A stretch of DNA of 63,661 bases from an uncultured Candidatus Saccharibacteria bacterium (GCA_964503795.1 CAZDBT010000003.1:1-63661), one strand, 5' to 3'. Positions 3,641-31,626 are shown, numbered from the stretch's first letter. Notes: generated from the letters alone by a model not told the origin. Program-made: numbers and translations.

Positions 3641-3641
3641 A

Positions 3642-4802: not shown

Positions 4803-4806
4803 AATA

Positions 4807-11729: not shown

Positions 11730-11796
11730 GGGCTCAGAGAGCGGTAATTTGTAATTGCCAGTGAGTCTAAATCCTGTTAGTCTACAGGTGCTATAA

Positions 11797-13374: not shown

Positions 13375-13382
13375 TAAAATAA

Positions 13383-13619: not shown

Positions 13620-13630
13620 ACATCAAAACT

Positions 13631-16316: not shown

Positions 16317-17684
16317 ATGCGCACTATTTTTATTGCCGCCTTCAATCCATTTATCCTTAGGAATATTCTCATTGGCGACGCCCTATCAGTTTTAAAGGCG
16401 GAGCCTGATAGCCGAGTGGTAGTCTTAGTTCCTGACTACAAGGTAGATTTTTTTAAAAAGGCGATCGGGGGCGATCGGGTACTTATTGAGGGGGTTAAAA
16501 CTCAAATTATTTCCCGGCAGGATATTTTTTTCCGGTTTGTTAACAGCTCTCTGGCTAACACCGACTCCCTTTCTATTCATAAGAGAACCCAGCTGGAACA
16601 GGGAAGGAATTTCCCGCGTTTCTTGGCCGCTCTTCTTTTGATGAAGGTTTTTGGCCGACTCAAAGCAATTCGTAATCTAAGCAGGCTGGCGGATTATCTG
16701 ACGATCGATAAGGCCCGATTTTCCGGACTATTTGATCGTTATCAGCCAGATCTGGTTTTTTCCACCGACGTTTTTCACGATGACGATGTTCATCTTTTGG
16801 CAGCGGCCAAAAAGCGCAGCGTTAAAACTGTGGGGATGGTACGATCTTGGGACAATTTCACCACAAAAGGAATTTTTCGGATCCGACCGGACGCTCTGAT
16901 CGTCCACAACGAAATTATGAAAGATGAAGCTTTGAGGCATTCCGGAATGATAGCCAAGGATATTTTCATCAGCGGCATTCCCCAATACGACCGTTATTTT
17001 TCCGGGCAGCGGATGGCACGGGAGGATTTTTTCAAAAAGATCGGATTGGATCCTGCCAAGAAAATGATTTTATTTTCCCCGTTTGGTAAACGCTTCACCG
17101 ATACCGACTGGCAAGTAATGGAAATTTTAAAGGAATTCATAGAAAAAAAACTCATTCCTCCCTCCCAGGTCCTAGTGCGCTTTACTCCTAATGATGAAGT
17201 TCCTTTGGGTAAATTTGAGCCGAGCGGGGATTTCTATATGGATAAGCCCGGCCATCAGTTTAAGGTCGGCGTTTTTCGGGACCAGGAGCTGAATGCATCT
17301 GATATGGACTGGCTGGCCGACTCTTTAGCTAATGCCGACGTGGTAGTGGCCGGTGGCGCTTCCATCGGAGTGGACGCAGCCGCTTTTGATAAGCCGGCGA
17401 TCCTGATCTACTTTGATGGTTTTGAGGATCGGCCGATTTTGCGAAGCGTTCGGAGATTTATAGATTACAGCCATGGCAAGCTGGTGAATCGTGACGGCTC
17501 TGTGATGCCGGCGAGGAGTCGCGAGGAATTGTTAAGCTGTTTGAATCAGGCATTAGGAAGTCCCGCTTCTGGACGCGAGCTTAGAAAAAAAATGATCGAG
17601 AGGATGTGTTGGAAAACTGATGGCCAGGCGGGAAAGAGGATAGGTAATTTTCTTTCTGCAATGTGGAGCCAGCGATATCGTTAG
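16317..17684 (+). CDS. TagB/TagF-like GT-B enzyme, paralogue 3
   Basis: 455 aa. SWDNFTT, SGIPQYDRYF, LFSPFGKR, VRFTPNDE and AFDKPAILIYF motifs. Confidence 0.5.
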   Translation: MRTIFIAAFNPFILRNILIGDALSVLKAEPDSRVVVLVPDYKVDFFKKAIGGDRVLIEGVKTQIISRQDIFFRFVNSSLANTDSLSIHKRTQLEQGRNFPRFLAALLLMKVFGRLKAIRNLSRLADYLTIDKARFSGLFDRYQPDLVFSTDVFHDDDVHLLAAAKKRSVKTVGMVRSWDNFTTKGIFRIRPDALIVHNEIMKDEALRHSGMIAKDIFISGIPQYDRYFSGQRMAREDFFKKIGLDPAKKMILFSPFGKRFTDTDWQVMEILKEFIEKKLIPPSQVLVRFTPNDEVPLGKFEPSGDFYMDKPGHQFKVGVFRDQELNASDMDWLADSLANADVVVAGGASIGVDAAAFDKPAILIYFDGFEDRPILRSVRRFIDYSHGKLVNRDGSVMPARSREELLSCLNQALGSPASGRELRKKMIERMCWKTDGQAGKRIGNFLSAMWSQRYR

Positions 17685-17726: not shown

Positions 17727-19625
17727 ATGCGATATCTTAAATCAGCACTGAACGTTAAGGCCCTTTTTTTGCTGGCGGCCGTTCTAGTCGGCTTCCTATA
17801 CATTGGGCCTCCGTTGATGATTTGGAAGAATTTCAGCGCTTCCGGCAGAGAATTCGTCCTCTCCCAGTACAAAACTTATCGGGATTCCCTGCAGGCTTAT
17901 CTGCCCCGGGCGAGAGAGATCTATGATGGCCATTTTCCGCCAAGCGAAGTATACGGACCGGTGACCGCCTTGCCGACCCTCCAGAATCCTTTGCCGTCCC
18001 TCTGGTTCGCCGGGTTCATCTATCTTTTCCGAGGCAATATTGACCTGGCTTATCTGGGCGTCCAATTCTTTTTCCCCGCCATAATTTTTTTGCTTTTTGC
18101 TTTTCTGGGATGGCAGCTGTGGCGTTCTAAACTCTGGGCAATGTTTTTGGGTCTGACCGGTGTTTTAACCCCGATCGTCGTCAAACTGCCATTCTATAAA
18201 TGGCAAGGCTGGGCGGAGTTCCAGGCTTTTTTTCTGAACAATTTCATTCCTTTTGCCAAGACTCAATTTGATCAACTCTACCTTGCCCGAGTGGATGAAC
18301 CGTTACTCACATATCCGATCTATCTTTTGGCGATAGTCACTTTCTTTATTTTTTGGAGAAAGCCGAAGATCCTGACTGCCGCGCTGGCCGCAGTTTCCGC
18401 CGGTTTGATATTTTATACCTACTTTCATCATTGGGTTTATTGGGTGGTCTGCGTGGGTTTGCTGTCCCTTTATGTTTTAATTTTTCAGCGTAGCAACAAG
18501 GAGCTCCTGCGAGGCTTTTTGGTGTTTTGGGGAGTCCTGCTGTTGATCACCATTCCTTATTTTGTTACTTACCTCCGATTCAATCACCTGGCCGCGGCGC
18601 GGGATTTCGTCTGGCGGGAGGGTATCGTGCAGGGCAGAACTCTGGGCATCGGAAGAGAGAACCTTCCCGATCTGGCGGCGTATGCGGTCTTGCTGGTTTC
18701 TAGCTATCTGCTTTATTGGAAAAAGGATCGGTCCAAGGCAGTTTTCTTCTTCGGTCTTATAGGGGCAATGTTCATTGTTTGGAATCTCCAACTGGTGATC
18801 GGTTACGTGCCGGTGCCGCATTTCTTCCGTCGCTCAATCTCCCCGGTGATCTTTTTGATCCTCTTTGATTTCGCTCACGAACTTTTCTCCCGGTTTTCGG
18901 CGCGGTCAATCCGGATCAGCAAGGTTCTGCGCGTAGCTCTGGTGATGGCGATAGTGGTTTTGCCGATCAAGAAGCTGGACAACATCCGGAGTATCAGCGG
19001 GGGTCTCCAGCCGGAAATTATCAATTATTATGATTTTCCGAACGAGGTCGCGCAGTCGTGGAGCTGGATCAACGAAAACTTGAGCGGCGAACCGCGGATC
19101 ATTTCGCCATCAACGCTTACGTCTATGTATCTTGCTGCGCATACCTCTGCTCGTCCGTTCTTGCCGACCGCTTTTATATCTTTATTGCCGATGTCTGATA
19201 TTGAGAACCGTTACCTTGTGAGTCATAAGCTATTCGGCGTTACTGCGACTGATCTTTCATTGCGATTGGCTGGCGCGGTTCCGACGGGGTGCGTTGGTTA
19301 CGAGTGCCCTCCGGACAAGGGGAGTAATCTGAATGACAGTGTCGGAAATATTTACGGCAATTATTTTTCCAGCCGCTACGGCAGTTTCAAGAACTTTATA
19401 GGCAAGACTGAAGATGGGGATGCCGCCTCTAAGCGATCGGAGAAAATGGATGAATTGCTGGCGCGCTATCGGAAGCTGACGGCCGATTGGTCGTCTGTGG
19501 ACGCGGATTATGTTTATTACGGTCCGCTGGAGAAACAGATCGTTACCGTCGATCTTTCCGCAAATAAGAAGCTGGCCTTGGTCTATAAGAACGGGTTAGT
19601 GGAGATATATAAGATCGTTCGTTAG
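17727..19625 (+). CDS. Large polytopic membrane protein (candidate GT-C-type glycosyltransferase/polymerase) with a C-terminal extracytoplasmic domain
   Basis: 632 aa. About 11-13 hydrophobic helices in residues 1-410, then a ~220-aa soluble tail. No diagnostic motif recognised. Confidence 0.4.
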   Translation: MRYLKSALNVKALFLLAAVLVGFLYIGPPLMIWKNFSASGREFVLSQYKTYRDSLQAYLPRAREIYDGHFPPSEVYGPVTALPTLQNPLPSLWFAGFIYLFRGNIDLAYLGVQFFFPAIIFLLFAFLGWQLWRSKLWAMFLGLTGVLTPIVVKLPFYKWQGWAEFQAFFLNNFIPFAKTQFDQLYLARVDEPLLTYPIYLLAIVTFFIFWRKPKILTAALAAVSAGLIFYTYFHHWVYWVVCVGLLSLYVLIFQRSNKELLRGFLVFWGVLLLITIPYFVTYLRFNHLAAARDFVWREGIVQGRTLGIGRENLPDLAAYAVLLVSSYLLYWKKDRSKAVFFFGLIGAMFIVWNLQLVIGYVPVPHFFRRSISPVIFLILFDFAHELFSRFSARSIRISKVLRVALVMAIVVLPIKKLDNIRSISGGLQPEIINYYDFPNEVAQSWSWINENLSGEPRIISPSTLTSMYLAAHTSARPFLPTAFISLLPMSDIENRYLVSHKLFGVTATDLSLRLAGAVPTGCVGYECPPDKGSNLNDSVGNIYGNYFSSRYGSFKNFIGKTEDGDAASKRSEKMDELLARYRKLTADWSSVDADYVYYGPLEKQIVTVDLSANKKLALVYKNGLVEIYKIVR

Positions 19626-19682: not shown

Positions 19683-20861
19683 ATGTCTAAAAAGTTGCGC
19701 GAAAAACGTAAAATCTGTTTCCCGATCACTAGCCGTATCCACTATGCCCGCCAGAAGCATCTTTTGGATCTGATCAACAAGAACCCGAAACTTGAACTTC
19801 AGTTGGTGGTGGGCGGATCGGTTTTACTCGATAAACATGGCGAGCATTTTTTGCCGGCCATCCAGGCCGCCGGTTTTCGGGTCAATGAAACTTTATTCAA
19901 CGTAGTGGAGGGCGGTGGCCACATCGCGATGGCCAAGACTTCCGGATTGACCGCGCTGGAATTCGCCAATTCACTTTACAAACTGAATCCGGATATCGTT
20001 CTGATCCGAGGCGATCGTTTTGAGCAGTTGGCCATCGCCATGGTTTCGGCCTATTTGAATAAAACCATCGCCCATATTGAGGGTGGAGATGTCAGTGGCA
20101 CCATTGATGAAAGTGTTCGTCACGCGATCACTAAGCTTTCGCATATCCACTTTGTTACCAACGAAGCGGCGCGGAAGCGGGTGATCCAGATGGGCGAAAA
20201 CCCGAGGATGGTTTTCAATGTAGGTTCTCCCGACGTGGAATTTGCCGCGCTGGTGGATAAGAAGAATGACGGCCGCGCGGTCAATAAGACTGGTATGGGC
20301 GCGAAGATCGACGTGAACAAGCCTTTTTTGATGGTGATGCAGCACCCGGTAACTACCGAAAAAAATAATCGCCGTAATGTGGAAGAAACTTTGAAGGCGA
20401 TCGATGAATTAAAAATGCCGACCGTTTGGTTCTGGCCGAACAGCGATGCCGGCACGGACGAAATTTCCAAGGCGATCCGCATATACCGCGAGCAGGGAAA
20501 GTTGAATAACCCGAACATCCGGTTCGTAACCGATATGTTGCCGGAAGATTTTATCGGATTATTGCGCCGATCCAGCGTTCTGGTCGGTAATTCCTCCTCC
20601 GGTATCAAAGAAGCTTCTTATCTGGGTACCCCGGTAGTCAATGTGGGAACTCGCCAAGCTAATCGTTTGCGCGGGGAGAATGTAGTGGATGTTGGTTACC
20701 GTTCTTCAGAGATAAAAGCGGCGGTCCAGAAGCAGATCAAACACGGCCCATATTTGAAGGGCAGCCTTTACTTCCAACCTAATTCCAGCCGGAAAATATT
20801 GGAAGTTTTGAATAAGGTAAAATTGACGTCTCAAAAGAAGTTTCACGACATTCAAAAATAA
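19683..20861 (+). CDS. neuC: UDP-N-acetylglucosamine 2-epimerase, hydrolysing (NeuC/LegG type)
   Basis: AHIEGGDVSGTIDESVRHAITKLSHIHFVTNE and VGNSSSGIKEASYLGTPVVNVG motifs. ATG 19683 (the track start 19680 is TTG). Confidence 0.8.
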   Translation: MSKKLREKRKICFPITSRIHYARQKHLLDLINKNPKLELQLVVGGSVLLDKHGEHFLPAIQAAGFRVNETLFNVVEGGGHIAMAKTSGLTALEFANSLYKLNPDIVLIRGDRFEQLAIAMVSAYLNKTIAHIEGGDVSGTIDESVRHAITKLSHIHFVTNEAARKRVIQMGENPRMVFNVGSPDVEFAALVDKKNDGRAVNKTGMGAKIDVNKPFLMVMQHPVTTEKNNRRNVEETLKAIDELKMPTVWFWPNSDAGTDEISKAIRIYREQGKLNNPNIRFVTDMLPEDFIGLLRRSSVLVGNSSSGIKEASYLGTPVVNVGTRQANRLRGENVVDVGYRSSEIKAAVQKQIKHGPYLKGSLYFQPNSSRKILEVLNKVKLTSQKKFHDIQK

Positions 20862-21577
20862 TGAAAGTTTTAGGTATCATCACTGCTCGCGGCGGATCTA
20901 AAGGGATTCCGGGTAAAAATATTAAGCCGTTGTTGGGCAAGCCGCTGATCGCCTACACGATAGAGGCCGCCAAAGCCTCCGGCGTGGTTGATCGTTTGAT
21001 ATTGTCTACCGATGATCCAGCGATCGCGGAAGTGGCCAAGCAATATGGTTGTGAAGTTCCGTTCATGCGTCCGGCGGAAATTGCCGACGATAAGGCCGCC
21101 CACTTGCCCGTGCTTCAGCACGCCGTAAAGACTTTGGAAGAAAAAGAAGGCTATGAGCCGGACTATATTTTATTGCTTCAGCCCACTTCTCCATTGCGGC
21201 AGGCCCATCATATTAAAGAGGCCGTGGAACTTATTCATAAATCCGGAGCGGATTCGGTGTTGAGCGTCGCGGAAATTCCGGAAAATTATCATTATAAAAA
21301 AGCTATGGCTGTTAACGGGGCCGGTGTTTTGCGTTTGGTGAGAGACGCTGGACCGATCCACAATCGCGTTGCCCGCCGTCAGGAATTGGAAAAGAATTAC
21401 TGGAGTGTTGGTTCCATCTATCTTTTTAAAACCGGCTTATTGTTTGATCCGGCGAAACCGAATTTCTATGGAGAAAAAACCTTGCCTTATGTGATCGACG
21501 CAAAGTACGTTTCCGATATCAATGTTCCGGCGGACTGGGACGCGGCGGAGCAGGCAATGAAGAATTTAGGAAAATAA
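20861..21577 (+). CDS. neuA: Acylneuraminate (nonulosonate) cytidylyltransferase
   Basis: ITARGGSKGIPGKNIKPLLGKPLIAYTIEAA and LLQPTSPLR motifs. TAATG overlap with neuC. Confidence 0.85.
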   Translation: MKVLGIITARGGSKGIPGKNIKPLLGKPLIAYTIEAAKASGVVDRLILSTDDPAIAEVAKQYGCEVPFMRPAEIADDKAAHLPVLQHAVKTLEEKEGYEPDYILLLQPTSPLRQAHHIKEAVELIHKSGADSVLSVAEIPENYHYKKAMAVNGAGVLRLVRDAGPIHNRVARRQELEKNYWSVGSIYLFKTGLLFDPAKPNFYGEKTLPYVIDAKYVSDINVPADWDAAEQAMKNLGK

Positions 21578-21578
21578 T

Positions 21579-22523
21579 ATGAAAATTCACATTACCGAGC
21601 CGCAAGATTATTCAAAAAAAGCGCTGGCCACTTATGCCTCATTCGGCGAAGTGGGCCTTGGGGACGTTCCGCATCCAGAAACCGCTGTGTTGGCGGTCCG
21701 CCTTAAGCACAAGATAGATAAGTCTTGGATGGAGAAGATGCCGAATTTGAAGATCATCGCTTCCCCAACCACCGGTTTGAATCACATTGATGTAGCAGAG
21801 GCGGAAAAGCGTGGTATCAAGCTAGTGACCCTGCGTGGGCACACCGATTTTTTGGACAAGATCACTTCCACGGCGGAGGAAACCCTTGGGTTGATCCTGG
21901 CCTTGGCGAGAAAGATCCCCCAGGCCTATGAGCATGTGAAAGCCGGCGGTTGGAACCGCGACCAATTCAAAGGCTATCAGTTGGCCGGCCAGACTTTGGG
22001 AATCTTGGGTTTGGGTCGTTTGGGAAAGATGGTGGCGCGCTATGCGAATTCTTTGGGAATGAAAGTGATCGCCGCCGATCCGGCCCTAGATGCCGCCGCT
22101 ATGTTGAGTCAGGGTGTGGAGAAGGTGAGTCACGATGAGCTGTTTTCTAAATCGGATTTTGTTTCTCTGCACGTGATGCTCGCTCCGGAAACGGAGAATT
22201 TAGTTAAGGCGGATCATTTAAAGTTGATGCGGCCGAACGCTTATTTGGTGAACACCGCCCGCGCGGAAATTATTGAGAAGGGCGCTTTGGAGAAAGCCCT
22301 GAAAGAAAAGTGGATCGCCGGAGCGGCAGTTGATGTGATGTGGGATGAGGAGGGTAGTGGCGCGCATCTGGCCAAGAGCGAACTTTGGGACATGGCGAAA
22401 GGCGGTCAGCATAATCTGATAATCGTTCCACACATCGGTGGAGCCACTTACGACGCGATGCAGATCACCGAAGAATTCATCGCCGATCTGGTTAAAAAAG
22501 AATTAAGTAAAAATGGGAAATAA
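21579..22523 (+). CDS. D-isomer-specific 2-hydroxyacid dehydrogenase (glycerate/phosphoglycerate dehydrogenase-like)
   Basis: LGILGLGRLGKMVARYA (NAD GxGxxG), NTARAEII and PHIGGAT motifs. Confidence 0.75.
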   Translation: MKIHITEPQDYSKKALATYASFGEVGLGDVPHPETAVLAVRLKHKIDKSWMEKMPNLKIIASPTTGLNHIDVAEAEKRGIKLVTLRGHTDFLDKITSTAEETLGLILALARKIPQAYEHVKAGGWNRDQFKGYQLAGQTLGILGLGRLGKMVARYANSLGMKVIAADPALDAAAMLSQGVEKVSHDELFSKSDFVSLHVMLAPETENLVKADHLKLMRPNAYLVNTARAEIIEKGALEKALKEKWIAGAAVDVMWDEEGSGAHLAKSELWDMAKGGQHNLIIVPHIGGATYDAMQITEEFIADLVKKELSKNGK

Positions 22524-22950
22524 GCCAAAAGATTGCGTGTTCATTCCGAAAGGAGAAGTAGATAAAGCTTTGCAAAATGTTCCGGTTGCCGGGAAACATC
22601 ACTTGGAGCCTTTCAAAGCCTTTTCAGTTGCCAACAAGTTGCCGATCAATATTTTGGAAGACTCGGAAGTAGCCAACGATGCCGAATTACATCGCCACGA
22701 AAGTGATCTCTGGTATTGTTTGGAGGGCGAGGTGGAATTTATTTATGGTGGCGAGATGGTTGCTCCCTGGTCTAATAAGAATGCCGATGGCAGCGCCAAT
22801 GAATTGGAGTGGAAGGCGAAAGAAATAAAAGGAGGAACCAGTGTGGTGTTAAAACCGAGGGACTGGCTTTGGATCCCCGCCGGTCAGCCGCATCAGCATA
22901 AATGCGCTGGAACGGCGCGATTAGCTATAATCAAAATCCCGGAGGCGTAG
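22513..22950 (+). CDS. Cupin-domain protein
   Basis: 145 aa. HRHESDLWYCLEGE ... WLWIPAGQPHQH resembles cupin motifs 1 and 2. Confidence 0.55.
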   Translation: MGNKPKDCVFIPKGEVDKALQNVPVAGKHHLEPFKAFSVANKLPINILEDSEVANDAELHRHESDLWYCLEGEVEFIYGGEMVAPWSNKNADGSANELEWKAKEIKGGTSVVLKPRDWLWIPAGQPHQHKCAGTARLAIIKIPEA

Positions 22951-22997
22951 AAAGAAGATCCGCTTTCTTGTCCCTTACATAAGTTTTATGTGAGGGA

Positions 22998-23026
22998 TTG
23001 ACGAGTCGGGTTTTTTGTTATATAAT
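22998..23026 (+). promoter_or_regulatory. Sigma-70-type promoter for the GC-rich transporter gene
   Basis: TTGACG (22998-23003), a 17-nt spacer, then TATAAT (23021-23026). Preceded by an 11-bp-stem hairpin CCCTTACATAA/TTATGTGAGGG at 22970-22994. Confidence 0.5.
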
Positions 23027-23075
23027 TCCTCGCAGTAGTTTCACAAACTCGTTATCCCAAATTAGGAGTCGGCAG

Positions 23076-24020
23076 ATGATCGGAGAAAAGTGGATGCGCT
23101 GGACGTTCGCGGAAGCGGGCACCAAGACGGCTTCCAAGATGTTGCAGAAGGTCATCGGCAGTGTCAGCGCCACCATGGGCCATGTTTTTTTCGGGACCAT
23201 GGTTGTGGGGATGGTGCAGGTGATGGCGGGGAGCGTGATGGCGGCCAAGCGTGGCAAGAAATTGCTAACGGATTGGAGGAGCGTCGGCGGTTCCTGCCTG
23301 TTCGGATTCTTCGCGGCTCTTTCCACGGTCCTGTCGTTCGCGGTTTTCACCCTGGGCGGCGATATCGGGGTCAACACTTTCATCATGACCCTCTCCATCG
23401 TGCCGGGCGCGCTCATTGATCGCTTCTGTTTCGGTCACAAGCTGAACTGGCGGCAGTGGGCCGGCGTGGGCCTAGCCATCCTGGCCGGATATTCGGTCTT
23501 GGGTTGGCCTGCCCTCGGGAAGCTCCTTACGCTTCCGCTCTGGATCTGGCTGTCGCTGATCATTATGTGTTCAACGGCGATCAACCAGGGCATTACCCAG
23601 AAGGTGAAGGGCATTGATCCCTACGTGAAGAACTTCTGGGGCGGCCTTACCACTCTGGCGCTGGCGCTTGCCGGCACTGCGATCCTGGGTTCGCTGAGGC
23701 TGTTCGCGGACCACTCCAAGCCGATGCAGAGTTTGTGGCTAGCATCGTTGTTTGGCGGGTTGATCGTGGTGGCGATGTGGAACTTCAATCTTCTAAGCTA
23801 CAAGGGTGGCGCCAGCATCGCGCTCAAGAAGCTGGTGATGAACGGAGCCTACCTCACATCCGCGATGTTGTTGAGCGCGATGCTCTTTCACGAAAGCCTG
23901 ACCGCCGGAAAGCTTTCGGGAATTGCTATCTATTTCTCGGCCTTCATTCTGATGGATGAAGGAACGTGGAATTATTTCGCTGGCAAATTCAACTATAAGA
24001 AAGTCTGCGCAGTTCCCTAA
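23076..24020 (+). CDS. DMT-superfamily (EamA-like) 10-TM transporter; compositionally foreign
   Basis: 314 aa from ATG 23076, with TAGGAG 7 nt upstream. Hydrophobic throughout. GC is ~60-67% in sampled 60-mers against ~37-50% in neighbouring genes. Confidence 0.55.
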   Translation: MIGEKWMRWTFAEAGTKTASKMLQKVIGSVSATMGHVFFGTMVVGMVQVMAGSVMAAKRGKKLLTDWRSVGGSCLFGFFAALSTVLSFAVFTLGGDIGVNTFIMTLSIVPGALIDRFCFGHKLNWRQWAGVGLAILAGYSVLGWPALGKLLTLPLWIWLSLIIMCSTAINQGITQKVKGIDPYVKNFWGGLTTLALALAGTAILGSLRLFADHSKPMQSLWLASLFGGLIVVAMWNFNLLSYKGGASIALKKLVMNGAYLTSAMLLSAMLFHESLTAGKLSGIAIYFSAFILMDEGTWNYFAGKFNYKKVCAVP

Positions 24021-24024
24021 CTGA

Positions 24025-24055
24025 CCTTCGCTACCCAGCGGAGGTTTTTTATTTT
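24025..24055 (+). terminator. Rho-independent terminator
   Basis: CCTTCGCT-ACCC-AGCGGAGG hairpin followed by TTTTTTATTTT. Confidence 0.6.
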
Positions 24056-24066
24056 AAAGTGGAGTT

Positions 24067-24951
24067 ATGTCCATCTGGTTCTTATTTGCAATTTCCAACG
24101 CCCTCGCCTTTTCTATCCACAACGCTTACAGCAAATATGCGGTTTCGCGGGGTCGGTTTTCCAAATTCACGGTAGTTTTCTGTTCTTCGTTGATCAGTTC
24201 TGTCATTTTATTCGCAGCAGCCTATTTTATGGGTCTTCCATCTTTGGATAGCACGTTCTGGTTAGCAGTCGTCATCACCGGCGTGATCAACTCCGTTACC
24301 GGCCCAATGCTTTTGCTGGCCTATCAATACGGGGAATTTTCCTCGGTTTTCTCTATGTCCCTGCTGACCCCGGTATTCCTTCTTCTGACCTCCTTTTTTA
24401 TTCTTGGAGAAATTCCCAGTTTGATCGGAGCTTCCGGTGTGGTCGTCACGATACTTGGTCTATGGGTGCTCACCAAAAGTTCCGCGGATGTAAAAGAAGA
24501 ACTAGTTGGTGAATCCGGGAAGATAAACCGCGGCAACTTACTCGCTATCGGGATCGCTCTGCTTTGGTCAATTTCGGTTAATTTTGATAAATTAGCGGCC
24601 CAGCATTCCAACGTCTTCTTCGCTCCGGCCTCTAGTTTGGCAATTATGGCCTTAACTTCCGGCGCCTATCTCCTTTTTGTTAATCGCCGGAACCTGCTTT
24701 CCCCAAGCGAAATAAAAATTCCCAATCTTTGGCTGATGGTGCCGTTAGGAATTTTGCTGGCCGCCAGCAGCCTTTTATTCAACGCCGCTCTTTTGGTCGG
24801 CCTTGCTTCCTACACGATCGCCGTAAAGCGGATGGGTATTCTGTTCGGAGTGCTTTGGGGCTGGTTGTTTTTTAAGGAGCGGAATATCGGCAAAAAACTA
24901 TTCGGCGCGGCTATTGCGGTGGCGGGCGTGATTTTGATACTGTTCTCATAA
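24067..24951 (+). CDS. EamA/DMT family transporter
   Basis: 294 aa, about 10 TM helices, duplicated EamA-like halves (e.g. ILGEIPSLIGASGVVVTILGLWVL and FFKERNIGKKLFGAAIAVAGVILILF). Confidence 0.7.
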   Translation: MSIWFLFAISNALAFSIHNAYSKYAVSRGRFSKFTVVFCSSLISSVILFAAAYFMGLPSLDSTFWLAVVITGVINSVTGPMLLLAYQYGEFSSVFSMSLLTPVFLLLTSFFILGEIPSLIGASGVVVTILGLWVLTKSSADVKEELVGESGKINRGNLLAIGIALLWSISVNFDKLAAQHSNVFFAPASSLAIMALTSGAYLLFVNRRNLLSPSEIKIPNLWLMVPLGILLAASSLLFNAALLVGLASYTIAVKRMGILFGVLWGWLFFKERNIGKKLFGAAIAVAGVILILFS

Positions 24952-25003
24952 CAAGTCATTTAGTAATTAAGTTTCTTTAGTTACTTAATGACTCAATAAC
25001 TCA

Positions 25004-26146
25004 ATGACTTCCGACAAAATTTGGAACAAGATCCAAAAGGGGGTATTCATTATCGCCGAGATCGGCAAGAATTTTATACAAACTGAAGCCGAGCAACCGG
25101 TTGAGGTGTATTTAGAGAACGCGAAGAAGTTGGTTGATGAAGCGGTAGCCGCCGGAGCGGACGCGGTGAAATTTCAAACCCACAATGTTGAGGACGAGCA
25201 ATTGAATATCAATGTAGTGTCGCCGCATTTTAAGGGCAGCGATCGTTATAGTTGGGTTTCCCGGAACACCCGTTCCACTCCGGTAGATAAATTTTGGAAA
25301 CCTCTGAAAGAGCATTGCGTAAAAAAAGGGATCATTTTCTTTTCTACTCCGATGAGCCGGGGAGCGGCAAAGATCCTGAACGAGCAGGTCGGGGTTGATC
25401 TTTGGAAGATAGGCTCCGGAGACATCCTGGATTTTGTGATGCTGGATTACCTGCGTCAGACCGGAAAGCCGATAATCTTTTCTACCGGAATGAGCACTTT
25501 TGAAGAAGCCGAAAAGGCGGTGAACTTTTTGCGGAAGAAAAACGAAAAGGTGGCGATGTTGCATTGTGTTTCAAAATATCCTTGCCCACCGGAGGATCTG
25601 CATTTAAAGACGATAGAGTTTTATCAAAAAACTTTTGATATGCCGATCGGGTTTTCCGATCATTCCGTTGGCATTGATCCGGCATTGGTGGCTACCGCTA
25701 TGGGGGCGAAGATACTGGAAAAGCATTTCTCGTTGTCGCGTGAACTTTGGGGTTCGGATCACAAAGTTTCTATGACGCCGGATGAGTTACGCGGTTTAGT
25801 TGATGGCGTGAAGGAAATTTTGGCTAGTCCCGCCAAGCGCCAGGAGATTTTAAATAGCGATTTTGCCAAACGCAGCTTGGTTGGCGACTCCGACGCTACG
25901 GCCGGAGCAGGCGGAAAGGTTCTACAGGAAGGGGAGGCGGCCTTTCGCCCATTGTTTCGTAAATCTTTGATGGCCGGTCGGGATATTCCAGCCGGGTCAG
26001 TAATAACCGCCGAGATGCTTTATGCGATGCGCCCACAGCAATACGCCGGAGGTCTGCCCTCGGAAAAATATGAGGAAGTTTTAGGTAGGAAAACCAAAGT
26101 TGCTTTGAAGAAGTTTGATCCGATAACTAACGAAGTTCTTTTTTAA
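25004..26146 (+). CDS. neuB: Nonulosonic (sialic/legionaminic/pseudaminic) acid synthase, NeuB family with C-terminal SAF domain
   Basis: FIIAEIGKNF, AGADAVKFQTHNVEDE, KIGSGD, STGMST, LHCVSKYP, GFSDHSVG and EKHFSL motifs, with a SAF-like tail (LMAGRDIPAGSVITAEML). Confidence 0.8.
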   Translation: MTSDKIWNKIQKGVFIIAEIGKNFIQTEAEQPVEVYLENAKKLVDEAVAAGADAVKFQTHNVEDEQLNINVVSPHFKGSDRYSWVSRNTRSTPVDKFWKPLKEHCVKKGIIFFSTPMSRGAAKILNEQVGVDLWKIGSGDILDFVMLDYLRQTGKPIIFSTGMSTFEEAEKAVNFLRKKNEKVAMLHCVSKYPCPPEDLHLKTIEFYQKTFDMPIGFSDHSVGIDPALVATAMGAKILEKHFSLSRELWGSDHKVSMTPDELRGLVDGVKEILASPAKRQEILNSDFAKRSLVGDSDATAGAGGKVLQEGEAAFRPLFRKSLMAGRDIPAGSVITAEMLYAMRPQQYAGGLPSEKYEEVLGRKTKVALKKFDPITNEVLF

Positions 26147-27212
26147 TAGCCGCCGCGGCCTTTTTGGCCGCCGGTTGTTTTCCAAACTTGAATAAGCGCG
26201 CCTGAATTGACTGGACGATCTTGTTGGACACCGGGTCGTTCATTATTTTTGTGAATTCATTTTCAAGCAAGGCGACATCTTCTTTATAGATTCCGGTTGT
26301 GGCTCCCACTGCGTTGGTCGGGAAATCCGACAGCCCCAGGTTCTTTTCCAGGCGTTCTTTTCCGGCATTTGGTAACAGGATGCTGATGCCCGGAATTCGC
26401 AGGTAGCAGGCGTGGATCAGATTTGTCGCGTACATACCCACCACCACATCGGCGATCGGTAGCAGATCTTCTGTGAATGGGATCGCGGAGGTATCTAGAT
26501 ATTTCAGATTCGGGGCCAATTCTTGATAGCGTCCCGGTTTTTCATCCCGCGGATGCTGGCGGGCGATCAATAGGCTGCTCGGATGATTACCTTGGAAATC
26601 TTTAACCGCTTTGGCCAGAAACTCAAAAGTTGTCTGGTCAACCTTCCACGCCGCCGGAGTTCCCGCCCCGCAATAAAGAATTATAAAAGTTTTATCATCA
26701 ACCCCGAATTTTTTACGTAATCTTTTCCGTTCTTTCGCGACGTTCTCGCCGCGGAAGCGATCAAAAGAGGGATTGCCGGTAACGATCACTTTACCTGTGT
26801 AACCGTCCTGCAAAATAAAGTTCTCTGCCAGCTCATCAATGGTTAGTAGGGTTTTCCAAAACGGCATCATTTTGAAATTGACCGGCCAGCGATGATTAGC
26901 CCAAATATCTTGGAAGCAGATGATCTTAGCGCCGGCGGAGTGGGCCAATTCGGTGAACTTGTTGTTAACGTATGGGCCGGTAACCAGCGAACTTATCGCC
27001 ACAAGCAAAATGTCGGGGGAGAACTTCTTATATATAGCCGCCGCGCCGCTTTCTTGGTCGCAACGTATCGGTTTAAACCTCTCCAATATCTTTGTAGGAG
27101 ATTCTTTGACGGTGACCAGTTGGATCTTGGCCGATCCTTTTATCAGTGGAATTACCGGCGCGATAAATTCAGCGGTACCCGGAGCGTCAACTACGATAAG
27201 GAGTTTCTTCAT
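26127..27212 (-). CDS. GT-B-like enzyme of unknown specificity (candidate glycan/nonulosonate transferase)
   Basis: 361 aa from ATG 27212 (MKKLLIVVDAPG...). VIVTGNPSFDRF, ILYCGAGTP and ARQHPRDE motifs. The 3' end overlaps neuB by 20 nt (convergent). Confidence 0.4.
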   Translation of the reverse strand: MKKLLIVVDAPGTAEFIAPVIPLIKGSAKIQLVTVKESPTKILERFKPIRCDQESGAAAIYKKFSPDILLVAISSLVTGPYVNNKFTELAHSAGAKIICFQDIWANHRWPVNFKMMPFWKTLLTIDELAENFILQDGYTGKVIVTGNPSFDRFRGENVAKERKRLRKKFGVDDKTFIILYCGAGTPAAWKVDQTTFEFLAKAVKDFQGNHPSSLLIARQHPRDEKPGRYQELAPNLKYLDTSAIPFTEDLLPIADVVVGMYATNLIHACYLRIPGISILLPNAGKERLEKNLGLSDFPTNAVGATTGIYKEDVALLENEFTKIMNDPVSNKIVQSIQARLFKFGKQPAAKKAAAAIKKELR

Positions 27213-27248
27213 TGCCTTAAGTATATCAAAAGCTAGGTGGAAGACTGC

Positions 27249-27277
27249 TTGACGTTTGAGGAAAATTTCGGTATTAT
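27249..27277 (+). promoter_or_regulatory. Sigma-70-type promoter for 27361-28437
   Basis: TTGACG (27249-27254), a 17-nt spacer, then TATTAT (27272-27277). AAGGAGG RBS at 27347-27353. Confidence 0.5.
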
Positions 27278-27360
27278 CTATCACGTTCTTTGACTTGGGC
27301 TTGAGCTGTCCAGAGTGGGCCGCTCGCCCGAAAAAAGTAAGTAGCTCCAAGGAGGTAGGT

Positions 27361-28437
27361 ATGAGGGTTCTGATTGTTTCACGCACTCTGGGGCCGGCGC
27401 GTAACCTGGCGAAAGTCGCCGCCGCGCTGGTAGACGGAAGTCACGAAGTGGCGGCGGTATTTTCCAAGGATGCTGGCGCGATGGTTGACTCCGAGCGGTT
27501 GCTCGAAGATTTCAAGCCGGACATTGTTCTGGCTTCTACCTCCAGCGCCAACCTACACGATGAGCTGATGGTTATGACTCGCGCAAGCAGTCGTGACATC
27601 CCGGTTGCGATATTCGCAGACACTTACGGCGCTTTCTGGCGAAAGGGTTTTCGATTCTGGGGACTCACGCCAAAAATTGAAGTGCTTTTCGTCCCCGACG
27701 AGGCGGAAAAGAAACTCGCCGAAGAGAAGGGTTTCCGCAACGTGGTCGCCTCCGGTGTGCCGTTCTGGGAAGAGCTGGCCCAATCGCGCGAAGATTTCTT
27801 CAACGCTCGTCTCCATGGGCGAGCCCTACTCGAGGTGGATGGCCACAACCTAATCACCTGGTCGCCCGGCAAGAACGGTGAGCTGAACAAGCAAACCCTA
27901 TCCGAGATCTTTGCTTCCCTTCGGGAGATGGGTGAGCGATTCTGTGAGACCCTAGCTTTCGTGGTTCGTTTCCATCCGGGAGACGGCAGTCTGAAGAGCG
28001 ATCCGAACTTCTACAAGGAGGTTCTGAAAACTTGTCCGGTGCGGATCGCGGATTGTAGTATGTTCAAGAAGCAGGAAGATATGATCCCTGCTCTGGATCT
28101 GATCATCAGCAGCAGCGGCACGCTAGGCGTCGCCGGAATTTACCAGCGCGTTCCGGTGATTGAATATCTTCCGAAGGCCTGGGAGGATCGGCTGGAAGAG
28201 GCGACCGGTTTCCGGACCTGGCCGCCGACCGCCACCGGCGCTTCCATGCTGGTGAGCGACCAGAGGCATCTGGCTACGGGCATCCTTTCGCTGATCGGCA
28301 GTTCTGACGTTGCTCGGAAGCAGATGCGCGATGCTCAAGAGCGCAACTATCCTGCGACCAAGGGCCGAGCGGTGGAAACGATCATCCGCTGCCTCGGCGA
28401 TCTGGCCAAGAAGAAGACCCTTGCCAAAAAGATCTAA
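27361..28437 (+). CDS. GT-B-like enzyme, distant paralogue of 26127-27212; GC-rich
   Basis: 358 aa from ATG 27361 (MRVLIVSRTLGP...). VVASGVPFWEEL, VVRFHPGDG and IISSSGTLGVAGIYQRVPVI motifs. Sampled GC is 55-70%. Confidence 0.4.
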   Translation: MRVLIVSRTLGPARNLAKVAAALVDGSHEVAAVFSKDAGAMVDSERLLEDFKPDIVLASTSSANLHDELMVMTRASSRDIPVAIFADTYGAFWRKGFRFWGLTPKIEVLFVPDEAEKKLAEEKGFRNVVASGVPFWEELAQSREDFFNARLHGRALLEVDGHNLITWSPGKNGELNKQTLSEIFASLREMGERFCETLAFVVRFHPGDGSLKSDPNFYKEVLKTCPVRIADCSMFKKQEDMIPALDLIISSSGTLGVAGIYQRVPVIEYLPKAWEDRLEEATGFRTWPPTATGASMLVSDQRHLATGILSLIGSSDVARKQMRDAQERNYPATKGRAVETIIRCLGDLAKKKTLAKKI

Positions 28438-29430: not shown

Positions 29431-31626
29431 ATGAATAACAAGAATTTAGCGAATTACTATGTTTGGGCCATCAAGGCTTTAGTTCTGATCATCCCGTTTT
29501 TGTCGGTTTGGATTGCGACCTCGATGTTTTTTCCTTATATTACCGGGCGGAACTTCGCTTTCAGGATATTGATCGAGATCGCTCTGGTATTGTGGGGGGC
29601 GTTAGCTATTTTGAAAAAAGAATACCGACCGCGGCTGACGCCGATCGCGATCGCGGTTTCCATTTTTGTTGTGATCATCGGAGCCGCCGATCTTTTGGGG
29701 ATTGATCCTTATAATAGTATTTGGTCGCGCCTGGAGAGGATGGAGGGTTATATGATGATCTTGCATTTGGCGGCCTATTTCTTAATTCTGACCAGTGTTT
29801 TCCGGACAAAGAAGGATTGGTTCGTATTTTTTAATTCGGTTCTAATCGCCGGTTTGTGGGTGGGCGGATACGGAGTTTTGCAGCTGCTGGGCATTAAGCA
29901 GGCTATCCAGGGAGGCAACGTGCGCATTGACGGTACGATCGGTAACCCGACTTATTTGGCGGCTTATCTTACTTTAGTCATCGGTCTTGGTCTGATACTG
30001 CTTTTTAATTCCAAGGATAAAATTTTCAAATGGATCTACTCGGCGATCATCGTTTTTAATTTTATTTTGATCTACTACACCGCCACTCGCGGCGCCGCTC
30101 TTTCGTTGTTGATCGCCATTCCATTATTTCTGGTTTTGTATCTGATCTTTTTCCGCGGTGATGATCCGAAGGAGCGCCGATTCAAAAAGATCGCCATCGG
30201 ATTGTTGGTTGTGATCATCGTAGTGCCGGCCGGTTTTTGGCTGATGCGCGCCACCAGCCTGGTGCAAAATAATGCCGTGTTGTCCCGTCTGACCTCTACT
30301 TCTCTTGGCGAGCGCACAATTAAATCCCGTTTCCAGATCTGGGGCATTGCTTGGAGGGCTTTTCAGGAGCGGCCGGTCCTAGGATGGGGTCAGGACAACT
30401 TCTTGTACGCCTTTTCTAAATATTTCGATCCGCGCCTTTATGACCAGGAGCCTTGGTTCGATCGTCCCCACGACATCTTCTTCGAGTGGCTGATAGACGG
30501 AGGGATTTTAGGATTCTTGTCCTACTTTGCCTTATTTGGGACCTTGTTCTTTTCCATTTTCAAACTTTTTAAGAGGAATTTCTTGGACAAAAAAGAGGCC
30601 ATCGTTTTAATTGTGGTGCCGATCGCTTATCTGGCTCAGAATGTTTTCGTTTTCGATAATTTTAATACCTATGTTCTGTTTTTCGGGATCCTAGCCTATG
30701 TAAACTCTTTGTATTCGGAGCATATTGCTCCGAAGCATCCAGTGGTGGAGCAAAAAAACGCGGAACAATTTTCACTGGGATTTTTGGTGATCGGCGCGAT
30801 CCTGATGTCGGTAATCATTTATTTCTGTAATTTCAAGGCTTTGGCGCAGGCGCAGGGGATCATCACTGCTTTGAAGGCCACTAGTGACCAAGTTGATCCG
30901 GTGGGCAAGACCACCGCGGCGTTCAAGGAAACTTTAGCCCAAAATTCATTCGGTACCGGTGAAACTTTGGAACAAATGTCGCGCGTCGCCGGTTTATTGC
31001 TCGGATCCAATAATGTGCCCAACAGTTCCAAGATCCCTTTTTTGGAATACACCATCGGTTCTCTAGAGGAATATCTAAAAGCTCATCCGGACAATTTGCG
31101 TCTTCATTTAATGGTTGGAGGATTGTATCAGACCGCCCGTTCCTTAAATCCGCAGCTGGTATTTAAAGCCCGCGAGCATTTGAAGGCGGCGCTGGATCTT
31201 AGCCCCACCAAGCAACAGATCTTATTTTTGCTGGCTGACAATTTCCTGGCTACCGGCGAAACCGCCAAGGCCATGGAACTGCTTCAGCAGGCAATCGACT
31301 TGGAGCCGACTTATCGCGATGCGTTCGTCAATCATGCGACCGTAGCCATTTTGATCGATCGCAATGATCTGGCCCTCAAAGACATTGAAAGTCTGAATAA
31401 GATCCGGCTTGGGTCATCCGACCAAAAACTGCCGGACCTGCCATTGTGGAATTATATCAATGATCTACAAAAGATTTTCAGTATTTATCGGCAGGCCGGT
31501 CAGCTAAGAAATGCCAGAATGATCTTTGATCGGATATTGGCTTTGAAGCCGGAAATAGTAAAATTCCACGAAGAGAACGGCTATTATAAGGAATTGATCA
31601 GCGGGTTGCAAAGCGATCTGAAATAG
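29431..31626 (+). CDS. O-antigen ligase/Wzy_C-family membrane protein fused to C-terminal TPR repeats
   Basis: 731 aa with more than 10 TM helices. YYTATRGAALSLLIAIPLF (Wzy_C-like loop). TPR-like repeats in the last ~200 aa (LADNFLATGETAKAMELLQQAIDLEPTYRDAFVNHA). Confidence 0.7.
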   Translation: MNNKNLANYYVWAIKALVLIIPFLSVWIATSMFFPYITGRNFAFRILIEIALVLWGALAILKKEYRPRLTPIAIAVSIFVVIIGAADLLGIDPYNSIWSRLERMEGYMMILHLAAYFLILTSVFRTKKDWFVFFNSVLIAGLWVGGYGVLQLLGIKQAIQGGNVRIDGTIGNPTYLAAYLTLVIGLGLILLFNSKDKIFKWIYSAIIVFNFILIYYTATRGAALSLLIAIPLFLVLYLIFFRGDDPKERRFKKIAIGLLVVIIVVPAGFWLMRATSLVQNNAVLSRLTSTSLGERTIKSRFQIWGIAWRAFQERPVLGWGQDNFLYAFSKYFDPRLYDQEPWFDRPHDIFFEWLIDGGILGFLSYFALFGTLFFSIFKLFKRNFLDKKEAIVLIVVPIAYLAQNVFVFDNFNTYVLFFGILAYVNSLYSEHIAPKHPVVEQKNAEQFSLGFLVIGAILMSVIIYFCNFKALAQAQGIITALKATSDQVDPVGKTTAAFKETLAQNSFGTGETLEQMSRVAGLLLGSNNVPNSSKIPFLEYTIGSLEEYLKAHPDNLRLHLMVGGLYQTARSLNPQLVFKAREHLKAALDLSPTKQQILFLLADNFLATGETAKAMELLQQAIDLEPTYRDAFVNHATVAILIDRNDLALKDIESLNKIRLGSSDQKLPDLPLWNYINDLQKIFSIYRQAGQLRNARMIFDRILALKPEIVKFHEENGYYKELISGLQSDLK

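Follow-up and report, generated by a model that had tools for sequence, protein, structure and literature searches.

A NeuB-type synthase clade of Patescibacteria and its linked D-2-hydroxyacid dehydrogenase in a candidate nonulosonic acid locus

Introduction

In the N-acetylneuraminic acid (Neu5Ac) pathway of Neisseria meningitidis (SiaA/SiaC/SiaB) and Escherichia coli K1, three enzyme families, a hydrolyzing UDP-GlcNAc 2-epimerase (NeuC), a synthase (NeuB), and a cytidylyltransferase (NeuA), are enough to make a CMP-activated nonulosonic acid (NulO) from UDP-GlcNAc. The same three families are encoded in a 63,661-nucleotide stretch of DNA from an uncultured Candidatus Saccharibacteria bacterium (GCA_964503795.1 CAZDBT010000003.1:1-63661), here called the window, of which we studied positions 19,683 to 26,146. 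Unlike in Neu5Ac operons, the order of this cassette is broken by genes for a D-2-hydroxyacid dehydrogenase (HADH), a cupin, and two EamA-type proteins of the drug/metabolite transporter (DMT) kind (DMT1 and DMT2), which lie between neuA and the gene for the synthase, called NeuB* below.

Several other described systems resemble parts of this region. Bacillus subtilis SpsE, a NeuB relative, belongs to the legionaminic acid (Leg) pathway (PMC7439481). NulO 8-epimerization in Acinetobacter baumannii (ElaA/ElaB/ElaC) and in phage (EpaA/EpaB) involves NAD(P) oxidoreductases that accompany, or are fused to, a cytidylyltransferase and act at the CMP-NulO stage (PMC13656337, PMC12053666). YhcH is a Zn-dependent anomerase that gives the aldolase NanA the open, α-keto-acid form of Neu5Ac (PMC8141875), and YjhC is an NAD-dependent oxidoreductase that converts anhydro and dehydro forms to Neu5Ac (PMC7315737). 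N-glyceroyl and N-glycolyl NulOs have been reported (PMC5378307), and BFO_1060 is an orthologue of knock-out-validated Tannerella forsythia transferases for pseudaminic acid (Pse) and Leg derivatives (PMC5420450).

On balance, homology and gene conservation lead us to favor the view that the region is the core of a Patescibacteria-specific, CMP-activated nonulosonic sugar pathway, set within a surface-glycan locus and including tailoring by the dehydrogenase. Patescibacteria (Candidate Phyla Radiation [CPR]) account for a large part of bacterial diversity; the majority live attached to other cells, and very little is known of the chemistry of their surfaces. The pathway itself is known; the new elements are a separate clade of synthases and, as a conserved accessory, an enzyme of a family unlinked to NulO synthesis in the literature searched, where we found no paper connecting 2-hydroxyacid dehydrogenases with neuB, neuC, or NulO synthesis and none on NulOs in Patescibacteria. 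The cassette would be a widespread, lineage-specific route to sialic-acid-like sugars and, if its product is a new NulO, would provide a handle (lectin, antibody, or metabolic label) for studying how CPR bacteria attach to their hosts.

The synthase belongs to a distinct NeuB clade

NeuB* matches PF03102 at 238.3 bits (cut-off, 22.1) and the SAF domain at 29.9 bits (cut-off, 21), and the EIGKNFIQTEAEQPVEVYLENAKK, KFQTH, STGMS, and SDHS motifs were all found in it; a first-pass annotation of this DNA had likewise read the last three motifs and the SAF domain as intact. That annotation had also described an atypical N-terminus in which the conserved His and Gly are replaced and about 6 residues are inserted. 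The replacement was borne out by a comparison of 53 clade sequences with 40 others, and the insert proved to be 9 residues long relative to the 40 canonical homologues: in NeuB*, the β1-α1 motif E-x-G-x-x-H-D/E-G gives way to E-x-G-K-N-F-I-Q-T followed by the insert. Across the clade, the signature takes the form [ED]-x-G-K-[NGST]-F-[IM]-x-[TSE], then about 9 extra residues, then EYL-x-NAK. GK(N)F(I)Q(T) with the 9-residue insert was present in 53 of 53 clade sequences that include the N-terminus, versus canonical G-x-x-H-D/E-G without an insert in all 40 non-clade homologues, second NeuB copies inside CPR loci among them. This N-terminus marks out a large and monophyletic NeuB clade that is almost purely Patescibacterial, and it offers a simple marker for the correct annotation of NeuB* genes.

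A word-filtered search scored 6,704 NeuB-family homologues at an E value of ≤1e-10; the best 120, which are clade members from hundreds of contigs, are 58 to 100% identical to NeuB* and, where the source is named, come from Patescibacteria, Parcubacteria, and related metagenome-assembled genomes (MAGs). Scanning one genome per GTDB species yielded 79 loci. At 54 of these, the NeuB protein is at least 45% identical to that of the window, and nearly all belong to Patescibacteria, including Peregrinibacteria, with a few bins otherwise labeled; the remaining loci are spread over many phyla, and their identity to it does not exceed 39%. In a neighbor-joining tree of 91 sequences, the 52 clade members were monophyletic with no foreign members. 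The phylogenetic placement proposed in the first-pass annotation gave a distinct clade; NeuB* is equidistant from the two characterized sequences added to the tree, N. meningitidis NeuB and B. subtilis SpsE. That annotation had named an SpsE-like position as a sign of another function; the point is moot, because SpsE is itself an enzyme of the legionaminic acid pathway (PMC7439481), and placement near it would not refute a NulO role. Campylobacter jejuni PseI (8h2c) is about as remote from NeuB* as the Neisseria enzyme by phmmer and Foldseek.

In the AlphaFold2 model of NeuB* (predicted local distance difference test [pLDDT] score, 93.2), residues 22-32 form a loop between β1 (15-21) and α1 (33-50); the β1-α1 loop of a TIM barrel lies on the catalytic face. 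A Foldseek search with the model returned PseI, SpsE, and NeuB at 28 to 30% identity with E values of about 1e-24 to 1e-27, and SpsE, with a template modeling (TM) score of 0.74 to 0.79 and a similar CV(S/A)KYP motif, is as distant as the Neisseria enzyme. Like N. meningitidis NeuB, NeuB* keeps the fold, the metal-binding His pair, the phosphoenolpyruvate (PEP)-binding Lys and Ser residues, and the Arg314-type residue of the SAF domain. The equivalents of K53, Q55, T110, K129, S132, S154, Y186, S213, H215, E234, H236, D247, and R314 (N. meningitidis numbering) are invariant or nearly so in 71 clade members; in the Neisseria enzyme, H215 and H236 are metal ligands, K53, K129, S132, S154, and S213 bind PEP, and E25, E134, and E234 are catalytic. 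H220, H241, K56, K135, S138, S160, S218, E19, and E239 of NeuB* are conserved, and its R343, which aligns with the essential R314, is invariant in the 71 members. Unlike Neu5Ac-type NeuB, to which it is about 30% identical, NeuB* lacks G-x-N-H-E-G, has the 9-residue β1-α1 insert, and carries two substitutions found throughout the clade, E134D (D140 in the window protein) and N184S; E134D is common among environmental, archaeal, and eukaryotic synthases (PMC8208679). NeuB* scored below the equivalog cut-offs of both TIGR03569 (NeuB_NnaB; 264.4 versus 399.65 bits) and TIGR03586 (PseI; 215.1 versus 340.25 bits).

Many Patescibacterial loci hold two or three NeuB paralogues (locus labels L001 to L086 denote homologous regions, and P numbers homologous proteins): L037 (3621-4664), L035 (5595-6638), L005, L016, L033, L034, and L050. 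At L035 and L037, the second NeuB, which sits beside NeuB*, is close to the N. meningitidis enzyme, and at L037 each of the two synthases has its own NeuC, NeuA, and HADH. Because a Neisseria-like NeuB sits beside it at these loci, NeuB* hints at something other than a simple duplicate of Neu5Ac synthesis. The earlier suggestion of a nonstandard NulO is made plausible by this pairing, by the distinct clade, and by the scores below both equivalog cut-offs.

Clade NeuB* also occurs at L044 (Gemmatimonadales) and L051 (Planctomycetota). GTDB records with clade NeuB* that are labeled Gammaproteobacteria, Woesearchaeota, or Methanosarcinales (among L005, L008, L011, L019, L021, L025, L028, and L032) are probably mislabeled, since the loci look Patescibacterial, but transfer may have occurred. 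A methyltransferase-NeuB* fusion of 647 amino acids (aa) was also seen.

The cassette and its dehydrogenase are conserved with the synthase

All seven open reading frames (ORFs) of the first-pass annotation are present (Table 1), and reading the DNA bore out its 1-nt neuC/neuA overlap (TAATG), its 11-nt HADH/cupin overlap, and its distance of about 3.4 kb from neuA to neuB (3427 nt from end to start). The spacer between neuA and the HADH gene is 1 nt. The start of neuC is likely the ATG at 19683.

The observed arrangement is real and far beyond chance, because the gene order recurs in dozens of independent MAGs. In close relatives the order is NeuC-NeuA-HADH-(cupin)-(DMT1)-DMT2-NeuB*-...-short UDP-glucose dehydrogenase (UGDH)-like protein-Wzy_C/tetratricopeptide repeat (TPR) protein, and in remoter clade members it is NeuB*-NeuC-NeuA-HADH. 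Among the 25 complete clade loci, defined by at least 5 kb of flank on each side, NeuC and NeuA were each found at 23, a TagF-like protein at 21, HADH at 20, DMT2 at 11, and a DegT-type protein at 4. Counted over all loci, HADH was present at 29 of 53 clade loci versus 2 of 28 others, DMT2 at 15 versus 0, DMT1 at 6 versus 0, and the cupin at 5 versus 0. Patescibacteria MAGs supplied the nearest homologues of NeuB, of the dehydrogenase, and of the cupin alike, and groundwater metagenome runs contain the region, in keeping with the earlier attribution to a CPR organism; the claim that the three core genes define a CMP-NulO pathway is likewise supported by homology and conserved linkage.

HADH matches PF02826 at 178.6 bits and PF00389 at 42.3 bits and reaches no equivalog cut-off in NCBIfam (3-phosphoglycerate dehydrogenase [PGDH], 203 versus 454; glyoxylate reductase, 194 versus 455). 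Its nearest solved relatives are an archaeal PGDH and glyoxylate reductases. The R228, E257, and H285 triad (33 clade members), GxGxxG, and D167, an Asp favoring NAD, are invariant, and relative to PGDH and glyoxylate reductase the clade carries a 5-residue insert in the substrate loop (L-R-G-H-T-x-F-L) and a 9-residue insert before the catalytic His. HADH lies immediately downstream of a NeuA-type gene in 24 of 34 copies, often overlapping it. The association also holds when approached from the dehydrogenase: three homologues picked out of the HADH search are all located in NulO clusters, one of them with the same HADH-cupin-EamA-EamA block. Among the best 150 representatives of HADH relatives, P0363 (L086, 702-2399; 565 aa), 49% identical to HADH, is an HADH-CTP_transf_3 fusion, and one HADH-methyltransferase fusion of 592 aa was found; P0395 and P0100 are also entered as fusion proteins.

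HADH resembles the Ela/Epa modules in following NeuA in most copies and in being fused to it once, as EpaA is a reductase fused to a cytidylyltransferase; unlike those modules, which consist of paired proteins of the Gfo/Idh/MocA, short-chain dehydrogenase/reductase (SDR), and aldo-keto reductase families, there is here a single D-2-hydroxyacid dehydrogenase. We infer that HADH is a NeuA-coupled accessory tailoring enzyme. Its linkage to the cytidylyltransferase makes the NulO its most likely substrate, whether as the open-chain 2-keto acid or in the form of CMP-NulO, which would match the arrangement in EpaA. The first-pass annotation had the dehydrogenase and cupin tailoring the hexosamine or the C3 donor; the tie of HADH to NeuA and the resemblance of the cupin to YhcH point instead to the NulO or CMP-NulO stage. 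A second 2-hydroxyacid dehydrogenase (398 aa; 39319-40515), which lies outside the glycan locus and adjoins a glutamine-synthetase-like gene, means that HADH is not the organism's only member of the family; this, together with the confinement of the HADH clade to NulO loci, led us to reject the idea of a housekeeping lactate- or serine-pathway enzyme.

The associated enzymes suggest a Neu-type backbone

NeuC passed the cut-off of TIGR03568 (NeuC_NnaA; 358.4 versus 235.9 bits) and scored 47 bits against the nonhydrolyzing WecB model; its best PDB match by phmmer was the human GNE epimerase (4zht, 218 bits), with the A. baumannii N,N'-diacetylbacillosamine (diNAcBac) hydrolyzing epimerase (5zlr) at 196 bits. 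NeuA matches PF02348 at 97.5 bits (cut-off, 22.6), and its best PDB matches are the CMP-Neu5Ac synthetases 6ifd, 9ftb, and 1eyr, with 1qwj also matched. No 4,6-dehydratase, DegT-type aminotransferase (LegC/PseC), or N-acetyltransferase was found within 19.6-26.2 kb, in agreement with the earlier statement that no PseB/PseC/LegB/LegC-type genes lie between the three core genes; these enzymes of the SpsE and PseI pathways are missing near most NeuB* genes. The pyridoxal phosphate enzymes that had been offered as LegC/PseC candidates (3642-6129 in the first-pass annotation, 3612-6129 here) turned out to be a class-I aminotransferase (3612-4802) and the sole DegT protein of the window (4807-6129), an RfbH-type CDP-hexulose 3-dehydrase (583 bits versus an equivalog cut-off of 423). 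Those window proteins that were run against NCBIfam gave no PseB, PseC, PseG, or PseH match, and the LegC-family model reached 190 bits versus a cut-off of 420. A 5-amino (Neu/Kdn) backbone appears more likely than a 5,7-diamino (Leg/Pse) one, because NeuC is slightly nearer to GNE, NeuA is nearest to CMP-Neu5Ac synthetases, the window DegT is of the RfbH type, and DegT genes are rare near NeuB*.

The cassette could alternatively make a 5,7-diamino NulO of the legionaminic or pseudaminic type, with NeuC a LegG-type hydrolyzing epimerase and the UDP- or GDP-diacetamido-trideoxyhexose supplied by genes elsewhere in the genome. TIGR03568 spans both NeuC and LegG, and by BLAST the window NeuC scores 215 bits against GNE and 202 against A. 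baumannii LegG, the difference being negative in some clade members. PseF (TIGR03584) is the best-scoring model for NeuA, at 185.3 bits, under its cut-off of 205.7; the residue at position 184 is small in both NeuB* (Ser) and the Leg synthase SpsE (Ala), within the similar CV(S/A)KYP motif; and at L003 the same cassette is closely preceded by genes for a dehydratase-like SDR, a DegT protein, and a hexapeptide acetyltransferase. We nevertheless consider this reading unlikely: Leg and Pse types are disfavored because sugar aminotransferases are mostly absent near NeuB* (DegT at just 4 of 25 complete loci), and the phmmer ranking of GNE above the diNAcBac epimerase, the RfbH-type assignment well over its cut-off, and the NCBIfam results all speak against it.

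The cupin and membrane proteins are accessories of a subclade

The cupin and DMT genes are accessories limited to a subclade. The cupin scores 39.9 bits against Cupin_2 and 17.3 bits against DUF386 (PF04074), under the cut-off of 26.5; 36 of 44 members of its family hit DUF386 at E values of ≤0.1, all below threshold, with a best value of 1.6e-6. The family is small and CPR-confined (181 matches), and the cupin has both metal motifs, with H60, H127, and H129 invariant. Searching its sequence against the PDB gave nothing useful (best E value, 0.19, to a quercetinase), and it was the fold search alone that pointed to YhcH: the top Foldseek matches of the AlphaFold2 model (pLDDT, 92.7) were YhcH (1s4c/1jop) and YjgK (9jrr), at TM scores of 0.5 to 0.57. 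YhcH (NanQ, DUF386), the best structural match, is a small metal-binding β-barrel of the sialic acid operon (PMC8141875). Unlike YhcH, the cupin falls below the Pfam threshold in sequence, and whereas YhcH feeds the NanA aldolase in catabolism, here there is no aldolase, the neighbor is a dehydrogenase, and the cassette is biosynthetic. We regard the cupin as a putative NulO anomerase or ring-opening helper, placed at the NulO stage because YhcH acts on finished sialic acid; a ring-opening helper translationally coupled to an α-keto-acid dehydrogenase would make a coherent pair.

DMT1 matches EamA at 28.8 bits, on the border of the cut-off (28.2), and has homologues at L004, L006, L007, L024, and L085; its start is most likely the ATG at 23076, judging from an AGGAG 8 nt upstream. 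DMT2 matches EamA at 77.5 bits over two stretches, with a hydropathy profile of about 10 transmembrane (TM-helix) segments. The description of two EamA/DMT transporters stands insofar as both match EamA, DMT1 at the borderline and with a revised start; BLASTP found no similarity between them, so we dropped the idea of a duplicated gene pair. A phosphonate pathway, raised by a weak match of DMT2 to a phosphonate-associated family, was also dropped, as no PEP mutase was found among the scanned window ORFs.

HADH, the cupin, and the DMT proteins might together form a salvage module beside de novo synthesis, in which a DMT protein imports an exogenous form of sialic acid, the cupin anomerizes it, and HADH converts it to the form that NeuA activates, much as YjhB/YjhC and YhcH do in E. 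coli (a nonhomologous analogue) or LicB-LicC in choline scavenging. YhcH-family proteins occur in sialic acid utilization operons (PMC8141875), and YjhC provides a precedent for NAD-dependent conversion to Neu5Ac (PMC7315737). The HADH-cupin-DMT1-DMT2 block recurs as a unit at L007, L024, and L085, and DMT1 has an apparent promoter and terminator of its own. CPR bacteria are auxotrophic episymbionts, a lifestyle that would suit scavenging. We find such a module distinctly unlikely, however, as HADH is far commoner than the cupin (5 clade loci) or the DMT proteins (15 and 6) and follows NeuA also where a transporter is absent, YjhC is a Gfo/Idh/MocA enzyme not homologous to HADH, groundwater lacks an obvious source of sialic acid, and we know of no sialic acid importer of the DMT family.

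Other possible products of the dehydrogenase

HADH might instead make a small D-2-hydroxy acid (glycolate, D-glycerate, or D-lactate) from glyoxylate, hydroxypyruvate, or pyruvate, which would become an N- or O-acyl group of the NulO, as in Pse5Am7Gra or the putative N-glycolyl Leg of T. forsythia. Glyoxylate reductases and PGDHs are its closest solved relatives, the window encodes a deacetylase, an FkbH glyceryl-loading domain, an adenylation enzyme, two carrier proteins, and Gcn5-related N-acetyltransferases (GNATs), and N-glyceroyl and N-glycolyl NulOs are on record (PMC5378307). This explanation seems very unlikely to us, in that the ligase, carrier, and acyltransferase are missing from most HADH loci (FkbH at 1 of 53 and DltA-like at 2 of 53), the substrate-loop inserts of HADH do not occur in glyoxylate reductase or PGDH, and the coupling to NeuA and the fusion protein would be left unexplained. 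FkbH, moreover, draws its glyceryl group from 1,3-bisphosphoglycerate and needs no free glycerate.

That the NeuA-like protein and HADH make a non-NulO cytidine-activated hydroxy acid or alditol donor for the TagF-like enzymes of a locus building mainly a teichoic-acid-like polymer, as TarJ/TarI make CDP-ribitol, is highly improbable even with 4 to 5 PF04464 proteins but no TagD or TarI in the window, 2 to 3 tandem NeuA paralogues before HADH in several relatives (L006, L017, and L018), and a separate UGDH-NeuA-HADH-f26-NeuB' module at L012, L014, and L084, since the single window NeuA overlaps NeuC and must therefore serve the NulO, CTP_transf_3 enzymes activate ulosonic acids and not phosphates, and the TagF-like proteins match, weakly, the BFO_1060 NulO-transferase model.

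The module just named (L012, 7741-8898; L014; L084, 7950-9104) comprises a full-length UGDH, NeuA, HADH, f26 (385 aa, no Pfam match), and a short NeuB paralogue without a SAF domain; NeuB*-NeuC-NeuA follows closely, and the module could represent another ulosonic acid pathway.

Proposed pathway

From the genes, motifs, clade, and linkage described above, we infer the enzymatic steps and product of the favored NulO pathway. NeuC would hydrolyze and epimerize UDP-GlcNAc to a ManNAc-type hexosamine, as its homology and linkage suggest, and NeuB*, with its metal, PEP, and Arg314-type residues intact and its β1-α1 loop 9 residues longer, would condense this hexosamine with PEP; linkage to NeuC and NeuA at 23 of 25 complete loci supports the proposed condensation. 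NeuA would then form the CMP-sugar. HADH, which keeps the α-keto-acid-binding Arg-Glu-His triad, would tailor the NulO (as an open-chain 2-keto acid) or the CMP-NulO, and the YhcH-like cupin, where present, could speed ring opening or anomerization of the NulO. The DMT proteins, as optional membrane accessories, may take up a precursor or a NulO obtained by scavenging. Transfer of the sugar to a lipid-linked glycan could fall to the TagB-like proteins with HP motifs; Bac_transf would start this glycan, Wzx flip it, and the Wzy_C-TPR protein ligate it. Given a synthase branch of their own and the close linkage of a dehydrogenase to it, these very small bacteria probably carry a surface coat with a modified sialic-acid-like sugar.

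More tentatively, and as a possibility we hold with little confidence, NeuB* with HADH, the cupin assisting where present, may yield a new nonulosonate derivative rather than plain Neu5Ac, Leg, or Pse, widely shown on Patescibacterial glycans. The chemistry would lie, for example, at C2 of the open-chain α-keto acid or consist of an oxidized or epimerized CMP-NulO. HADH would then set a precedent in its family for activity on a nonulosonic acid, and such a product would add chemistry to a sugar class central to cell recognition.

Several observations weigh against the proposed pathway. NeuB* and NeuA fall below every NCBIfam equivalog cut-off, and the GNE-minus-LegG BLAST difference (with sequences taken from PDB alignments) ranges from -32 to +43 bits across clade NeuC proteins, with the GGD-x-(S/T)-G motif not discriminating between GNE-like and LegG-like NeuC; other parts of the genome could encode aminotransferases and dehydratases. 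The likeness of the cupin to YhcH is weak, at TM scores of 0.5 to 0.57 and with Pfam DUF386 below threshold. The one HADH-NeuA fusion, P0363, comes from just one 3.7-kb contig and may be the product of a frameshift where two genes overlap. HADH is missing from 5 of the 25 complete loci, which keep NeuB*-NeuC-NeuA, and it is therefore an accessory and not the source of the NeuB* substrate. To our knowledge, D-2-hydroxyacid dehydrogenases have no recognized activity on NulOs or CMP-sugars; small α-keto acids are their usual substrates, and CMP-NulO has no free 2-keto group.

The surrounding glycan locus

Surrounding the cassette is a glycan locus that covers at least 37 kb, from about 1 to 36.9 kb in the window, and a flanking set of transferases, Wzy_C-TPR, Wzx, and Bac_transf recurs in relatives (Table 1). 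The Wzx and Bac_transf pair marks the far end of the locus and holds the same position at L001, L003, L007, L024, and L031. Promoter and terminator scans of the region gave a number of sites no higher than chance, and single strong matches alone are noted.

Table 1. Features of the cassette and the surrounding locus, by position in the window
Feature	Position	Strand	Basis or remark
AcpS-like phosphopantetheinyl transferase	8671-9018		
DltA-like adenylation enzyme	9006-10484		
Carrier protein, 79 aa	10468-10707		
FkbH glyceryl-loading domain protein	11797-13374		289 bits vs cut-off 147
Second carrier protein	13383-13619		
TagB/TagF-like protein, candidate NulO transferase	14089-15408	+	PF04464, 42.6 bits; BFO_1060 family, 72.7 vs 200
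Polysaccharide deacetylase	15396-16313	+	PF01522, 81.7 bits; 14/53 clade vs 1/28 other loci
TagB/TagF-like protein	16317-17684	+	PF04464, 29.9 bits; BFO_1060 family, 46.3 bits
Polytopic membrane protein, at least 9 transmembrane segments	17727-19625	+	No Pfam match; directly upstream of neuC; homologues at L003, L020, L029
NeuC-type hydrolyzing UDP-GlcNAc 2-epimerase	19680 (TTG) or 19683 (ATG)-20861	+	TIGR03568, PF02350
NeuA-type CMP-nonulosonate synthetase (CTP_transf_3)	20861-21577	+	PF02348
HADH, NAD-dependent D-2-hydroxyacid dehydrogenase	21579-22523	+	PF02826
Cupin_2 metal-binding cupin, distantly YhcH/DUF386-like	22513-22950	+	Cupin_2, fold match
Promoter-like site TTGACG-17-TATAAT upstream of DMT1	22998-23026	+	11/12 match; consensus match only
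DMT1, weak EamA-type membrane protein	Called 22998-24020, revised 23076-24020	+	EamA
Terminator-like hairpin and T-run after DMT1	24023-24046		Pattern match
DMT2, 10-segment EamA transporter	24067-24951	+	EamA; directly upstream of neuB
NeuB*, TIM barrel and SAF domain	25004-26146	+	PF03102, SAF
NeuB* clade signature G21-N39 (GKNFIQTEAEQPVEVYLEN)	25064-25120	+	Comparison of homologues
TagB/TagF-like GT-B protein, HP motif, candidate NulO transferase	26127-27386	-	Convergent with neuB; PF04464 weak; NF046086, 39.7 vs 200
Terminator-like hairpin and T-run after neuB	26155-26171	+	Pattern match only
Conserved protein, HP motif, between NeuB* and short UGDH-like gene	27256-28437	+	No Pfam/NCBIfam match; homologues in 8 clade loci
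Short UDP-glucose/GDP-mannose-dehydrogenase-like protein, 300 aa	28512-29414	+	PF03721, PF00984, not PF03720
Wzy_C (O-antigen ligase/O-oligosaccharyltransferase-like) and TPR protein	29431-31626	+	PF04932, 80.4 bits; 20/53 clade loci
Wzx-type flippase	34269-35591	-	PF01943, 137 bits
Initiating phosphoglycosyltransferase Bac_transf	35591-36925	-	PF02397, 213.6 bits

The locus also holds a GT2 glycosyltransferase and 4 to 5 TagB/TagF-like proteins, with HP motifs in 3 of 5. These resemble T. forsythia Tanf_01245, TFUB4_00887, and BFO_1060, which are TagB/TagF-like proteins of the glycosyltransferase B fold (GT-B) with HP motifs beside the NulO genes of a surface-glycan locus (PMC5420450). Unlike those transferases, the window proteins match the BFO_1060 family (NF046086) well under its cut-off of 200 bits, four of them at 39.7 to 72.7 bits, which marks a resemblance only. 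The family of the protein at 16317-17684 is present at 30 of 53 clade versus 4 of 28 other loci, and orthologues of the convergent protein follow NeuB* at L018 and L031. The called starts of this protein and of the divergent ORF beside it overlap by about 130 nt, so each gene probably starts further inside; positions 27249-27277 resemble a promoter. The short UGDH-like protein keeps the GGYCFPKD catalytic Cys motif, with a shortened N-domain and no C-terminal nucleotide-sugar domain; its gene adjoins the Wzy_C-TPR gene at 14 clade loci (58 to 86% identity).

Upstream, a carrier-protein acylation module (8671-14086), which also includes a 346-aa GNAT-like protein and further GNATs, may decorate the glycan or the NulO with aminoacyl or glyceroyl groups. 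At 1779-6129, a split transketolase-like pair (1779-2726 and 2723-3640) accompanies the class-I aminotransferase and RfbH-type 3-dehydrase, which suggests that the locus also encodes a distinct route to a 3,6-dideoxy or branched-chain sugar. At several loci, NeuA is followed by asparagine-synthase-like genes or has them nearby. A trio of polysaccharide deacetylase, formyltransferase, and methyltransferase next to NeuB* (upstream of it at L025, L032, L038, and L039; also at L058) suggests that in other lineages the sugar is de-N-acetylated and then N-formylated or methylated.

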